A DNA stretch of 64,000 bases from Escherichia phage vB_EcoP_HC-25922. This document shows positions 43,539 through 47,614 of this stretch, in pieces; the first letter of the stretch is position 1; each line of letters opens with the position of its first letter. Below the pieces are notes generated by a model, which searched no databases, was not told the origin of the DNA, and worked only from the letters and a program-made list of their open reading frames with translations. Position numbers and translations under genes: made by a program. The stretch lies in sequence record OQ555404.1; one strand, written 5' to 3'.

Positions 43539-43766
43539 TTAGATAACCTTGTGCTTATAGATGTTAGGGTTGTAGTAATGCAACCAGTTTATGTATTGCT
43601 TCTGTTCGAGGTAGTGCCTGCAATCATGACAAAAAGCATGACCCAAACCTGTTTCCTCGTTCAGCTTGAAATTGATAAGAAGCTTCTGCTTTCGACAGAA
43701 GCTACATGCTTTAGTGGGCTTCACGTAATGCATCCCAAGAGATTGGATATATTTTACGAAGCTCTT
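43539..43766 (-). CDS. Cys-rich small protein (zinc-finger-like)
   Basis: CSFCRK...CHDCRH cysteine pairs; start moved to an internal Met to limit overlap with thyX. Confidence 0.35.
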   Translation of the reverse strand, partial: KSFVKYIQSLGMHYVKPTKACSFCRKQKLLINFKLNEETGLGHAFCHDCRHYLEQKQYINWLHYYNPNIYKHKVI

Positions 43767-44361
43767 CATCAATGGTTGATGCGAACACTCGTACTTCGTA
43801 CTGAGCATGGTCTGACAGTCGCTGACGACACAACTCTGACCAACCATATAGAGAACCGGTCCATACCCACTCAGTGATCATACCCTGAGGTAATACGAAT
43901 CGAGCTTGTTCTGGAGCAATGAACTTAATCAATTCATCATACGACTCAAGAGCTGTTTCATATGCTCGGTTAATCAGAACTAGTGCAGAGTTTTGTGCTC
44001 CTGTGGTGAGGAGATTCCCTGCACCTGCATGGAGGTCCGAAGGTCTTTCAAAAATCTCTTTAGGGATGAAGAGTTCAACTGCTCCATCTTTATACCGCCG
44101 GGACATTTCGTTCCACGAGAATCCAACTTGATGCTTGCCCAGCTGTCTCGCAATTGCGATTGGCGCTTTGCATCGGAAGCTAATTGTCGGATGGCGGAAT
44201 GGTGTGACATGCTTTTCTCTGGCAAGGAACTTGATAAGGCGTTCATCTCGTTCATTTAACTCTCCTTCACGAGTAACCCCAAAGGAAACTCGAGCTGCAT
44301 TAACAACAGATTTATCAGAACCCATTGCTTCAATTAGTGTTGCTTGTAATTGTTCGTTCAT
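43711..44361 (-). CDS. thyX: FAD-dependent thymidylate synthase ThyX
   Basis: ThyX signature RHPT...SWNEMSRRY (RHR...S motif). Confidence 0.8.
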   Translation of the reverse strand: MNEQLQATLIEAMGSDKSVVNAARVSFGVTREGELNERDERLIKFLAREKHVTPFRHPTISFRCKAPIAIARQLGKHQVGFSWNEMSRRYKDGAVELFIPKEIFERPSDLHAGAGNLLTTGAQNSALVLINRAYETALESYDELIKFIAPEQARFVLPQGMITEWVWTGSLYGWSELCRQRLSDHAQYEVRVFASTIDEELRKIYPISWDALREAH

Positions 44362-44375
44362 CCTTGAATTCTTCC

Positions 44376-44591
44376 TTAGTAATGAATCTTTTTATAAATC
44401 AGGTTGCTTCCACTTTCTGTTTCAATCCCTTTCTGGATTGTAATCTTAGAAGCACCGGTATTAGCAATTTTTAAAGCTCGTTTAAAGCGGCGAGCCTCTC
44501 TCCGTGTTGTGTATGAGGAGAAGCTAGGGATTGTACTATCAAAATTAAACCACTTAACTACCCAAAAAGTAATCCAAGGTTTCTTTTCCAT
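44376..44591 (-). CDS. small protein, family A member 1 (W..W...TRxEAR...KxxY family)
   Basis: 71 aa; shares W-rich N-terminus, TRREAR and C-terminal KKIHY with two other ORFs. Confidence 0.45.
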   Translation of the reverse strand: MEKKPWITFWVVKWFNFDSTIPSFSSYTTRREARRFKRALKIANTGASKITIQKGIETESGSNLIYKKIHY

Positions 44592-44592
44592 A

Positions 44593-44868
44593 TTAAATAC
44601 CTTTCAGAGCTGTATCTAAAAACGCACGGAGGTTTGATTCAGTTTGCATACCGGACAAGCTGTAGTGAGCACCACTGTTCATGTTAGGAACCACAAAGGC
44701 TGGGATACTGCGAACACCATATTCAATGGCTCGCTCTCGACCATCACCTTCAGAGATATTTACTTCTTCAACTTCTACGTTGTAATCAGCTACAACTTTC
44801 TTAAACACAGGAGCCATAGCTGCACATGGAGCACAGGAATTACTATAAAACTTAATTACTTTACTCAT
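44593..44868 (-). CDS. thioredoxin/glutaredoxin-like protein
   Basis: CxxC active site (SNSCAPCAAM); start set at MSKVIKFY with AAGGA RBS. Confidence 0.65.
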   Translation of the reverse strand: MSKVIKFYSNSCAPCAAMAPVFKKVVADYNVEVEEVNISEGDGRERAIEYGVRSIPAFVVPNMNSGAHYSLSGMQTESNLRAFLDTALKGI

Positions 44869-45253: not shown

Positions 45254-45440
45254 TCATGCAGTCAACAGGTGGAGAAGGAAAGGAATGACAACAGAGAAGA
45301 CTACCAGAGCAATGCTGCCATGTTTAATGGGTTTAGCGTCATTCGGGTTCTCTTTAAGCATCTGTTTCTGAGCTACATAAACGATACCGCCAACAAAAAA
45401 TTGCCCATACAGACCATACGATTGCTGAAAACATACTCAT
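45254..45440 (-). pseudogene. family B paralog disrupted by a frameshift in a T6/A6 homopolymer
   Basis: ATG 45440 with AAGGA RBS; reads MSMFSAIVWSVWAIF then stops; one frame over continues VGGIVYVAQKQMLKENPNDAKPIKHGSIALVVF, paralogous to 45059..45244. Confidence 0.4.
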
Positions 45441-45497
45441 ATCCTTATAAAGAAGTTCGCCCCACCTCTTGAACAAAGAGACAGGGCGGAGGTTTGA

Positions 45498-46073
45498 TTA
45501 GTAAGACACATCACCACTGGAGTGGGACATGTTGCTCTTGACGAAGTAACAGAACTTGCCAAGACCTTCATTAATTTCTTGAAGCATACTCTGGTCCACT
45601 GGATAGGTGCACAAGTCTGAATCAAACTCATCCATCTTCTCAATGATACACATAAGAGTCATGCACATGTCGGAAAGCATACCGTCCATGTCAAGATCAG
45701 CGTTACCTTCTCGGAACCAAGCATGACCTAAATAATTACTAGCAGTAGCATCCACTTTAACACAATGAAAGCGCATACGCTCTGCTATTCGGTCGCCTGC
45801 CTCACGAGCATAATCTTCTAGTTCATCGAACATACCATGAACACCTTGGAAACCAGCTCCAGAGACGTTCCAGTGGTAGTTCTTTGCTTTGATGTGTAGA
45901 AGTTCAAGGTTAGCTTGCACACCACACAAGATGTGTTCTAAACTGTTACCGCTAATCAGTTTATTCATTCCCTCAAGACGAGAGATAGAAGAGTCAGTAG
46001 TAGAGAATGGGTTGCTAGAACCCACTCGTGTTAGTTCTGGTAAGTCGAAGACATTATTATGCATTAGGTGCAT
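45498..46073 (-). CDS. Dps-like ferritin-superfamily protein
   Basis: Dps signature KNYHWNVSGAGFQGVHGMFDELEDYAREAGDRIAERM (HWNV.G..F...H..FEE...D.IAER). Confidence 0.7.
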   Translation of the reverse strand: MHLMHNNVFDLPELTRVGSSNPFSTTDSSISRLEGMNKLISGNSLEHILCGVQANLELLHIKAKNYHWNVSGAGFQGVHGMFDELEDYAREAGDRIAERMRFHCVKVDATASNYLGHAWFREGNADLDMDGMLSDMCMTLMCIIEKMDEFDSDLCTYPVDQSMLQEINEGLGKFCYFVKSNMSHSSGDVSY

Positions 46074-46404
46074 CCCCTTCTAAGTTAGTTGAATTAGCTA
46101 CATTACGAGCAATGTTATCCATGACCTGCTGTGTAATAACAATACAATTCTGAGGGTCTACTGATTTAGAACGCCCCATCTCAGGGTCATAGACTTTGAC
46201 TCGCTTGGCTGTTGAGCCAGTAACTTGCAACACTTTGAGAAGATAGCCTTGGTTTCCAATAGACCATGCAACAACATCACGATTCTTGATATAACGACCA
46301 AGCATGTCACGATGATAGAACTGCTGCATAACTTTAGCTTTGCTAATCTCTTCAGATGGCGGGGCCACTTTACTCAAATCTAACATAACTCTCTCCTGTT
46401 TCAT
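46057..46404 (-). CDS. hypothetical protein
   Basis: 115-aa ORF. Confidence 0.45.
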   Translation of the reverse strand: MKQERVMLDLSKVAPPSEEISKAKVMQQFYHRDMLGRYIKNRDVVAWSIGNQGYLLKVLQVTGSTAKRVKVYDPEMGRSKSVDPQNCIVITQQVMDNIARNVANSTNLEGDAPNA

Positions 46405-46456: not shown

Positions 46457-46672
46457 CTAGTAATAAACCTTGCTGGATATGAATCCAGCACTGTTATGGA
46501 TATTTTCAATCCAACGATGAATCTCCACCTTTTCAGCGATTCCTAAAGCTTTTGTAGCTTTTATAGTTTTCTTAGCAAGACGAGCCTCTTGTCTTGTGTT
46601 GAATAATTGAATACAATCACCACCAAGAGCTTTGTTAGCCCATTTAGTACGAACTGCCCATAATTTATCCAT
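46457..46672 (-). CDS. small protein, family A member 2
   Basis: 71 aa; TRQEAR and C-terminal SKVYY conserved with members 1 and 3. Confidence 0.45.
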   Translation of the reverse strand: MDKLWAVRTKWANKALGGDCIQLFNTRQEARLAKKTIKATKALGIAEKVEIHRWIENIHNSAGFISSKVYY

Positions 46673-46884
46673 TAGTAATGTACCTTTCCGCTGATATAGA
46701 AACGACCTGATTTAAAGTCTTGAGCTTTGTGGATAGTGATCTTATTAATTGTGCTTTCACAACTTAATAAGAACTTCTTATGAGCGCGAGCTTCTTGACG
46801 GGTATTCCTAATACCCATTGACTCTGTACCACTGCTCCAGTGAATACGAACTACCCAACGTCTTTTCATTGTTCCAAACTCCAT
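46672..46884 (-). CDS. small protein, family A member 3
   Basis: 70 aa; TRQEAR and C-terminal GKVHY; tandem with member 2. Confidence 0.45.
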   Translation of the reverse strand: MEFGTMKRRWVVRIHWSSGTESMGIRNTRQEARAHKKFLLSCESTINKITIHKAQDFKSGRFYISGKVHY

Positions 46885-47080: not shown

Positions 47081-47614
47081 TTATACACCCTTAGATGCAA
47101 CTACACCATTACTGCCGTTGTATCGACCCTTCACTGCATAAGAGTCATCACCAGCGTGAGAGTGTTCGAACATAACCATTTGACCAACACGCATCCCAGC
47201 ACGAACTCGTAAGCTATGATTATGGGTAACGTTATGAAATTCAAAGGTTAGTTTACTGCTGTTAAACCCTGCATCAGCCCAACCAGCATGGAGGTGGTTT
47301 AAACCACAACGAGCCATTGAGGAGCGAAGTACAAACAGGCTTGAGATGTTATCTGGAAGGTTAAACTCTTCCATTGAGTGCGCTAAGAAGAATTGCCCCG
47401 GAGTGATAACAATACCATCTTCAGGGATTTTTACTTCTTTCCACTTGAGGTTTTCTTTAGCATCAATGTCAACAATTCCGTCAGCCTGTTCTTCAACAAG
47501 GATAGTATCACCAATACGGATATCCACGCTAGCAGCGTTAACATATTTATGCTCCGCATCTAAAAAGCCATTATCAATAACGCTGTGTAATTCTTGAGAA
47601 CCTAAAAGACTCAT
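47081..47614 (-). CDS. dCTP deaminase (dUTPase superfamily)
   Basis: VDIRIGDT and GWADAGF...LTFEFHN...GQMVMFE match dCTP deaminase/dUTPase signatures. Confidence 0.75.
   Translation of the reverse strand: MSLLGSQELHSVIDNGFLDAEHKYVNAASVDIRIGDTILVEEQADGIVDIDAKENLKWKEVKIPEDGIVITPGQFFLAHSMEEFNLPDNISSLFVLRSSMARCGLNHLHAGWADAGFNSSKLTFEFHNVTHNHSLRVRAGMRVGQMVMFEHSHAGDDSYAVKGRYNGSNGVVASKGV

Follow-up and report, generated by a model that had tools for sequence, protein, structure and literature searches.

Among the genes for nucleotide metabolism in Escherichia phage vB_EcoP_HC-25922 lies an open reading frame whose product had been noticed, in a preliminary description of the sequence, to resemble the Dps-like ferritins. 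The locus raises the questions of whether the gene indeed encodes a member of this family, where its coding sequence starts and which task such a protein might perform in an infected cell. The window analysed here is a stretch of 64,000 nucleotides (sequence record OQ555404.1), to which all coordinates refer.

Judged by sequence comparison and predicted fold, the gene encodes a divergent, phage-lineage-specific mini-ferritin of the Dps family. Its identity as a Dps protein is already public and not new. The record for phiEco32 gp67 has carried the note “member of the Dps family” since 2008, the SU10 paper lists CDS67 (with a Dps domain) and CDS68 among the genes common to all five C3 phages, the Privateer paper points out Dps homologues in Kuravirus, and Lactobacillus and gut phages have also been reported to harbour Dps genes. 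As a discovery the locus adds little, since the family, the Dps identity and the conservation were already laid down in databases and two genome papers. Our literature search found no experimental or functional study of any phage Dps or ferritin. Here, we add a corrected start site, a case against DNA binding by the Dps protein alone, a description of its N-terminal extension, the lineage-wide and charge-complementary pairing of Dps with the gp68 protein, and the recognition of a misleading “integrase” label.

Start site, fold and ferroxidase site

The longer version of the reading frame (45498..46073, minus strand) comprises 191 codons, is opened by an in-frame ATG at 46073 and contains, as an exact match within its translation, the peptide KNYHWNVSGAGFQGVHGMFDELEDYAREAGDRIAERM quoted earlier as the ferroxidase-site signature. 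The coding sequence most likely begins at a second ATG and then spans 45498..46064 on the minus strand (188 amino acids plus stop, 21.1 kDa). A Shine-Dalgarno-like sequence, GAAGGGG (46074..46080, minus strand), is located within the 3' end of the upstream gp68-like gene, at a distance of 0 nt from ATG 46073 and 9 nt from ATG 46064. The N-terminus MHN..., which corresponds to the second ATG, is the start in 26 of 26 Dps homologues, and the records of SU7 and UKE3 annotate the Dps start at the equivalent of ATG 46064. Based on the spacing, the homologue starts and these annotations, we prefer ATG 46064 and reject ATG 46073. The SU7 record also annotates a ribosome-binding site at the place equivalent to GAAGGGG. 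Hence, the frame 45498-46073, for which the preliminary description had not stated a strand, is real and lies on the minus strand, but its start is probably at 46064.

The gene is under purifying selection. Nei-Gojobori dN/dS is 0.057 in comparison with ECBP2 (dS 0.39, unsaturated) and approximately 0.05 in comparison with phiEco32, these figures of 0.05–0.06 being taken from relatives with unsaturated dS. The dN/dS of about 0.05, together with the invariant ligands described below, rules out a chance reading frame or a decaying gene.

Profile searches place the protein in the ferritin/Dps family, as had been claimed. For Pfam Ferritin (PF00210) the score is 32.9 bits (gathering cutoff 24.5; E 7e-8), with a match limited to residues 59-102, and PHROG 3636, which is labelled “DNA binding protein”, matches from end to end (E 1e-52). 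The sole matches in NCBIfam are Dps and DpsA models, all far under their cutoffs (34.7 bits against 114 for NF006975, Dps; 31.1 against 170 and 17.4 against 300 for NF041388 and NF052461, DpsA, respectively). Because these scores fall far below the equivalog cutoffs, the phage protein is considered a relative rather than an orthologue of bacterial Dps. A phmmer search against PDB sequences yielded Dps proteins as all of the best 55 matches, the first being Mycobacterium smegmatis Dps2 (E 7e-10).

The predicted structure, which had been suggested as a check for a four-helix bundle, points in the same direction. An AlphaFold2 (AF2) model built on a 27-sequence alignment reaches a mean pLDDT of 81.9, with values above 90 over residues 43-180, and comprises helices at residues 42-66 (A), 72-99 (B), 108-113 (short BC helix), 126-151 (C) and 155-177 (D). 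The model represents a four-helix bundle with a short BC helix and without a C-terminal fifth (E) helix, which is the Dps topology. Among the matches listed by Foldseek against the PDB, 50 of 50 are Dps or Dps-like (target-normalised TM-scores 0.8–0.9), and the best of them superimpose with an rmsd of 1.2–2.4 Å, the lowest values being 1.2–1.4 Å. A classical ferritin, bacterioferritin or rubrerythrin is ruled out by the Dps neighbours, i.e., the best 55 in sequence and the 50 listed in structure, and by the BC helix.

Many GenBank records, e.g., MZ234017 and IME267, label the gene “integrase”. This identity is rejected, as the protein has no recombinase domain: neither Pfam, NCBIfam nor PHROGs returned an integrase or recombinase family, and those matches in these collections that exceed curated thresholds or have strong E-values are all to ferritin/Dps.

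The ferroxidase-centre segment, which reaches from the end of helix A across helix B, is encoded at 45780..45875 on the minus strand. In the numbering of the 188-residue protein, the codons concerned specify H64 (45875-45873), W65, H76 (45839-45837), D80 (45827-45825), D91 (45794-45792) and E95 (45782-45780), which share columns and spacing with H51, W52, H63, D67, D78 and E82 of E. coli Dps. This alignment included the phage protein, 15 diverse homologues and an E. coli Dps sequence identical to PDB 1F30, with 1DPS also compared. Across 27 aligned phage homologues H64, W65, H76, D91 and E95 are invariant, and D80 is kept in at least 90%. The signature on which the preliminary description relied is intact, with all five ligands and the tryptophan aligned to E. 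coli Dps and retained across the 27 homologues; a loss of ferroxidase ligands, which would have spoken against a ferritin, is not seen in the alignment.

The four-helix bundle with its BC helix, the H/H/D and D/E ligands and the tryptophan are features that the phage protein has in common with E. coli Dps (1DPS, 1F30) and M. smegmatis Dps2 (2Z90, 4M35). Unlike these similarities in architecture, sequence identity to bacterial Dps proteins is low (about 20–26%), and the phage protein is more acidic, with a pI of 4.79 and a net charge of -14 per subunit compared to a pI of 5.72 and a net charge of -4 in E. coli Dps. It contains six cysteines, whereas E. coli Dps has none, and a 42-residue, non-basic extension takes the place of the Lys-rich DNA-binding tail. 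While the Lys-rich tail of E. coli Dps has a net charge of +3, the N-terminal tail of the phage protein has a net charge of -1 (three K+R, four D+E) and is devoid of a lysine cluster; the final 12 residues also amount to a net charge of -1. Given an acidic protein with such a tail, DNA binding in the manner of E. coli Dps is not expected, and direct coating of DNA by the phage Dps alone is unlikely in view of its strong acidity and the lack of a basic tail. The earlier statement that Dps proteins coat DNA is therefore not supported for this protein, and the label “DNA binding protein” appears to be a transfer by homology.

The N-terminal extension of approximately 41–42 residues (45942..46064, minus strand) is, according to the alignments and the AF2 model, specific to the long form of the phage Dps. 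Two motifs within it are conserved, namely NxFDLP at residues 3-9 and SxxRLExM at roughly residues 25-33; residues 26-38 are predicted, with low confidence, to form a helix. The extension is kept in homologues down to about 50% identity and is absent from the forms of 144–156 amino acids found in SE131, Privateer and LAh_8. Comparisons within the genus revealed 7–8 synonymous and 0 nonsynonymous changes in the extension, whereas between genera its dN is 0.34 as opposed to 0.06 for the core, i.e., it diverges about five times faster.

Distribution, neighbourhood and expression

The phage origin of the gene, which the preliminary description had put forward, is borne out by the surrounding DNA. 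The region shows 99.5% identity to Escherichia phage vB_EcoP-101114UKE3 and 94–98% identity to Bas87, IME267, ECBP2 and SU7, all of which belong to the genus Suseptimavirus of the Gordonclarkvirinae, and portal and major capsid genes of the SU10 type are present within the window. The Dps protein itself is 100% identical to SU7 gp067 and to the Bas86 protein, and 82–84% identical to phiEco32 gp67 and the SU10 homologue. The gene in phiEco32 (gp67), SU10 (CDS67) and SU7 (gp067), assigned to PHROG 3636, is the same gene in the same place, between gp68 and the thioredoxin/ThyX block, and nothing substantive differs; the locus described here has an extra in-frame upstream ATG, which is probably unused.

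The Dps clade was matched in 133 of 50,697 phage records. Records with Dps and records with an SU10-type capsid protein number 92 and 94, respectively, for Escherichia, 11 and 11 for Aeromonas, 8 and 8 for Proteus, 7 and 7 for Salmonella and 6 and 7 for Cronobacter, and Dps is thus a core gene that almost all members of the phiEco32-like or prolate (C3) podophage lineage possess. The remark that Dps is not a common phage gene holds across phages overall but is misleading within the lineage. A word-indexed search retrieved 38 relatives, all 38 of which contain PF00210, and the long contigs bearing them span 55–96 kb, i.e., are phage-sized. An exhaustive phmmer search against 1.84 billion cluster representatives returned 554 proteins at E<=1e-3 and only 12 at E<=1e-10, which confirms a small and divergent clade.

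Short forms of the protein in Grimontviridae and Lahexavirus (Privateer QIN94861, SE131 gp090, LAh_8 gp125) fall into the same PHROG 3636 clade at 33–43% identity. They share the nucleotide-metabolism context and a gp68-family partner with the long form, but comprise 144–156 residues without the NxFDLP/SxxRLExM extension and reside beside ATP-cone or anaerobic ribonucleotide reductase (RNR) genes. More distant are the Dps-like proteins of Gratiaviridae and other gut phages, of Lactobacillus phages LP65 and Semele and of Bacillus phage G (gp346), which have a Dps fold and a proposed anti-oxidative role, and which show 13–22% identity in structural alignment. In a viral structure library the SU10 homologue is the first match of our model, followed by the proteins of phage G, LP65, Semele and uncultured phages, several of the latter being fused to proteins named “prohead protease”.

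The setting among nucleotide-metabolism genes noted earlier is evident from ThyX (43711..44361; Pfam Thy1, E 5e-43), thioredoxin (44593..44868) and dCTP deaminase (47081..47614; Pfam DCD, E 2e-34), which are all encoded on the minus strand like Dps. The same strand also carries genes for a nucleotidyltransferase, a primase/helicase and DNA polymerase, including an exonuclease subunit. In Privateer, SE131 and LAh_8 the clade is likewise surrounded by thioredoxin, ThyX, dCTP deaminase and either an ATP-cone/NrdD-N-terminal-like ORF or NrdD/NrdG.

A scan for terminator-like elements identified a 13-bp stem-loop followed by AACUUCUUUAUAA, located 10 nt past the Dps stop codon (45458..45488, minus strand), with an RNA folding energy of -18 kcal/mol (z -2.1). 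In phiEco32 the stems are unchanged but the loop differs; the SU7 record does not annotate the hairpin. The hairpin is possibly a weak intrinsic terminator or an RNA-stabilising element. The phage-sigma promoter motif TAATGTAT does not occur near gp68-Dps; the window contains six matches to it in other places, a number that hardly exceeds chance. A scan for sigma70-like sites gave a number not above that in shuffled sequence and nothing convincing beside gp68-Dps. The SU7 record annotates a promoter upstream of gp068.

Expression of the SU10 homologue has been documented by mass spectrometry (35.8% coverage, 6 peptides), and SU10 CDS67 has been placed among the middle genes by homology to phiEco32. 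The proteomics sample of 2014 was a PEG-concentrated lysate, not CsCl-purified, in which DNA polymerase and thioredoxin were found as well. Because the material was PEG-only, the detection indicates expression and not virion association. Association with the SU10 virion is rejected on account of this sample and of the virion study of 2022, which does not list the protein.

The overlapping gene gp68

Immediately upstream of Dps lies a gene for a gp68-like protein of 109 amino acids (46057..46386, minus strand; PHROG 10984, E 1e-62; pI 9.1). Its stop codon TAA (46059-46057) reaches past the Dps start at ATG 46064, resulting in an 8-nt overlap. The two genes are translationally coupled, and gp68 is the candidate partner of Dps. 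Neither Pfam, NCBIfam nor PADLOC returned a match for gp68, and a sequence-profile search of the PDB gave nothing credible, the best match being Tako8, which we take to be a designed repeat protein and for which no single stretch was significant by itself. With PADLOC likewise finding no match for Dps, membership of the pair in a known defence system is rejected.

An AF2 model of gp68 (pLDDT 64) shows an N-terminal helix and a small barrel of five strands. Its resemblance to Tudor, PWWP and SH3-like domains is weak and non-significant (E about 6e-3), and the top fold match is a PWWP-ssDNA complex. Homologues of gp68 with 36–38% identity are encoded immediately upstream of Dps in Proteus phage Privateer (Grimontviridae) and Aeromonas phage LAh_8 (Lahexavirus). 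An HMM of gp68 applied to 22 loci detected the protein at 15 of 15 loci of the prolate-podophage lineage and at none of seven distant viral Dps loci; within the lineage the gene abuts or overlaps Dps in 12 cases and lies about 1.3 kb upstream in three loci of the SE131/7-11 type. Among the 50,697 phage records gp68 occurs in 128, compared to 133 for Dps, the counts per host genus are nearly identical, and the numbers of both genes nearly equal those of SU10-type capsid proteins in the same genera.

The gp68 family is consistently basic, with pI values of 8.8–9.7 and a charge of +5 on the predicted barrel, and the Dps partners are consistently acidic (pI 4.6–5.4). This dedicated small basic partner also sets the phage gene apart from bacterial Dps. 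The two proteins may be partners in a physical or functional sense, or their pairing may be no more than inherited synteny. If the phage Dps acts on DNA, it probably does so via the conserved, basic and translationally coupled gp68.

Possible roles in the infected cell

We favour, with a probability of roughly 0.6, a role of the protein as a ferroxidase mini-ferritin that detoxifies Fe(II) and H2O2 while the phage DNA is being replicated. The suggestion in the preliminary description that a phage Dps could guard replicating DNA against oxidative damage or change the iron handling of the host is likewise the most reasonable one. According to this reading, Dps would be made as a middle, i.e., replication-phase, protein alongside the genes for nucleotide metabolism and DNA replication. 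By analogy with solved Dps proteins it would assemble into a hollow dodecamer, where a ferroxidase centre at each two-fold interface would be formed by H64, H76 and D80 of one subunit and D91 and E95 of the other. Fe(II) would be oxidised at this centre, preferentially by H2O2, and Fe(III) kept as a mineral core, such that both Fenton reagents would be cleared from the cytoplasm while phage DNA replicates. The dodecamer, the ferroxidase activity and the physiological role are all inferred. The detoxifying role is plausible, since gp79 allows phiEco32-type phages to shut down the sigma70 transcription of the host, and expression of host stress genes might accordingly be off in the replication phase. 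The same anti-oxidative role was proposed by Benler et al. for the Dps proteins of gut phages. Some observations count against it: iron storage can hardly take effect within a lytic cycle of tens of minutes, simple detoxification does not account for the conserved N-terminal extension and the conserved gp68 partner, and the NCBIfam Dps scores far below cutoff and the short Pfam match also weigh against it.

The partner gene lends itself to an alternative that we regard as unlikely, namely a module in which gp68, as a basic protein with a small barrel, links acidic Dps cages to DNA. Such a module would condense or coat replicating phage DNA, keep out nucleases including restriction enzymes, and admit RNA polymerase (RNAP). 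The name “DNA-binding protein” in the records, the ever co-encoded and usually coupled gp68 with its opposite charge, and the top fold match of its barrel agree with this idea. E. coli Dps has been reported to exclude restriction endonucleases from DNA while RNAP keeps access, and the BASEL study found Gordonclarkvirinae to be remarkably resistant to restriction-modification (RM) without a known mechanism. The charge of the Dps protein and its want of a Lys-rich tail argue against the idea, however, as do the low pLDDT and non-significant fold matches of the gp68 model. Moreover, the product of a middle gene would be made after the incoming DNA had already met restriction, inherited synteny alone could explain the adjacency, and the BASEL authors favour DNA modification involving the dCTP deaminase and the nucleotidyltransferase. 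The genomic context could also be read in terms of enzymes rather than DNA: Dps might buffer or donate iron for iron-dependent nucleotide enzymes of phage or host, or shield O2- or peroxide-sensitive ones, such as NrdD/NrdG in relatives or the class I RNR of the host. Dps always lies among genes for dNTP synthesis and thioredoxin, and in LAh_8, Privateer and SE131 it adjoins NrdD/NrdG or the ATP-cone/NrdD-N-terminal-like ORF. Yet, the genes examined around Dps in the window do not include an iron enzyme, ThyX being a flavoenzyme and dCTP deaminase having no iron requirement, and Dps proteins are not known to serve as iron donors; we consider this reading improbable.

Least of all do we expect the protein to reside in the particle, either packaged or bound to the head as an encapsulin-like cargo or internal protein, possibly via its N-terminal extension. 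This notion draws on the Privateer homologue, which is one of ten proteins detected by mass spectrometry in virions purified by CsCl step and equilibrium gradients, as well as on the Dps-like domains fused to prohead proteases in uncultured phages and on the near-universal presence of Dps in a lineage with prolate heads. Against this stand the location of the gene in the replication module instead of the structural module, and the lack of the extension in the Privateer protein. A dense, iron-loaded Dps cage could, furthermore, co-band with phage in CsCl. For SU10, the PEG-only origin of the proteomic detection likewise speaks against the notion, and the gel/mass-spectrometry and cryo-EM study of the virion lists gp20–24 as internal proteins and leaves Dps unmentioned. 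Compared to these placements, the detoxifying mini-ferritin remains the reading that we prefer.

A broader proposal, to which we assign a low probability, is that gp68 and Dps form a two-protein module for coating or organising the phage DNA inside the cell, possibly also in or on the prolate head, which would add to the unexplained RM resistance of the Gordonclarkvirinae. A head placement of the module is hinted at by the detection of Dps in Privateer virions, and a parallel can be drawn to the nuclease-excluding, RNAP-permissive condensates of E. coli Dps.

The phage group is abundant, relevant for therapy and now comprises members infecting E. coli K-12 (BASEL phages Bas86-94), which renders genetics feasible. 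Because of the “integrase” label, therapeutic candidates that are strictly lytic could be mistaken for temperate phages, and the commoner label “DNA binding protein” is likewise unsupported by the sequence. For the biology of these phages, the conserved pairing of gp68 with Dps, the complementary charges of the two and the lineage-specific N-terminal extension suggest that the phage protein has a role more specific than generic iron detoxification.

Genes in the vicinity of the Dps gene

The Dps gene is translationally coupled to a gene on the same strand (46057..46386, minus strand), which encodes a basic protein of PHROG 10984 resembling gp68 of phiEco32-type phages and predicted to adopt a small beta-barrel fold. 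The two genes are jointly present in essentially all genomes of prolate (C3) podophages, and their co-occurrence spans Gordonclarkvirinae, Grimontviridae and Lahexavirus. Upstream of the gp68-like gene lie two tandem ORFs of PHROG 4939 (46457..46672 and 46672..46884, both minus strand), and a third paralogue is located between the thioredoxin and ThyX genes (44376..44591, minus strand). These three ORFs of the window comprise 70-71 amino acids each, and all share a similar C-terminal tail, ...(K/S)GKV(H/Y)Y or KKIHY.

The segment 47081..49074 (minus strand) encodes a dCTP deaminase followed by a 487-amino acid nucleotidyltransferase of PHROG 12715, which yielded no Pfam match and harbours a long, low-complexity C-terminal half. 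The authors of the BASEL E. coli phage collection suggested that these two enzymes could underlie a DNA modification, which would explain the resistance of this phage group to restriction-modification.

The region downstream of the Dps gene

Ten nucleotides past the Dps stop codon, a conserved 13-bp hairpin (45458..45488, minus strand) is found, the stems of which are invariant, while the loop deviates in phiEco32. The hairpin may constitute a weak terminator or an RNA-stabilizing element, and its equivalent is not annotated in the SU7 record.

Just 3' of the Dps gene, relatives carry a conserved hydrophobic ORF of 59 amino acids, the product of which is likely a membrane protein. In the window this ORF (45255..45440, minus strand) is disrupted: a run of six T residues (45395..45400, minus strand) replaces the five found in the 99.5% identical phage UKE3, and the one extra T breaks the reading frame, leaving a stub of 28 amino acids. 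The insertion is absent from SU7, ECBP2 and Bas87; it reflects either a sequencing error in the homopolymer or genuine pseudogenization. Moreover, the stop codon of the ORF is TGA in the window versus TAA in relatives.

Dps-like proteins in other phages

In Privateer, SE131 and LAh_8, which encode a short-form Dps, the gene is directly followed by a stand-alone ATP-cone, NrdD-N-terminal-like or NrdR-like gene (L003, 3898-4194; L004, 3908-4207; L005, 3929-4201), coding for proteins of approximately 90-99 amino acids (PHROG 36488/487). No such counterpart was seen adjoining Dps in the window. Outside the window, BFVD entries from uncultured Caudovirales (A0A6J7XDU5, A0A6J7WPK9 and A0A6J7WIS1) show Dps-like domains in fusion with proteins that bear the name “prohead protease”. 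These fusions suggest that some phages carry a ferritin-like domain into the procapsid, an arrangement that recalls encapsulin cargo.

The “integrase” annotation

In many GenBank genomes of relatives, the equivalent of the Dps gene (45498..46064, minus strand) is annotated as “integrase”, e.g., in MZ234017 (101114UKE3_069), IME267, ES17 and KM01. Despite this label, the gene product contains no recombinase domain, and the misannotation could cause these lytic phages to be wrongly flagged as temperate during therapy screening.
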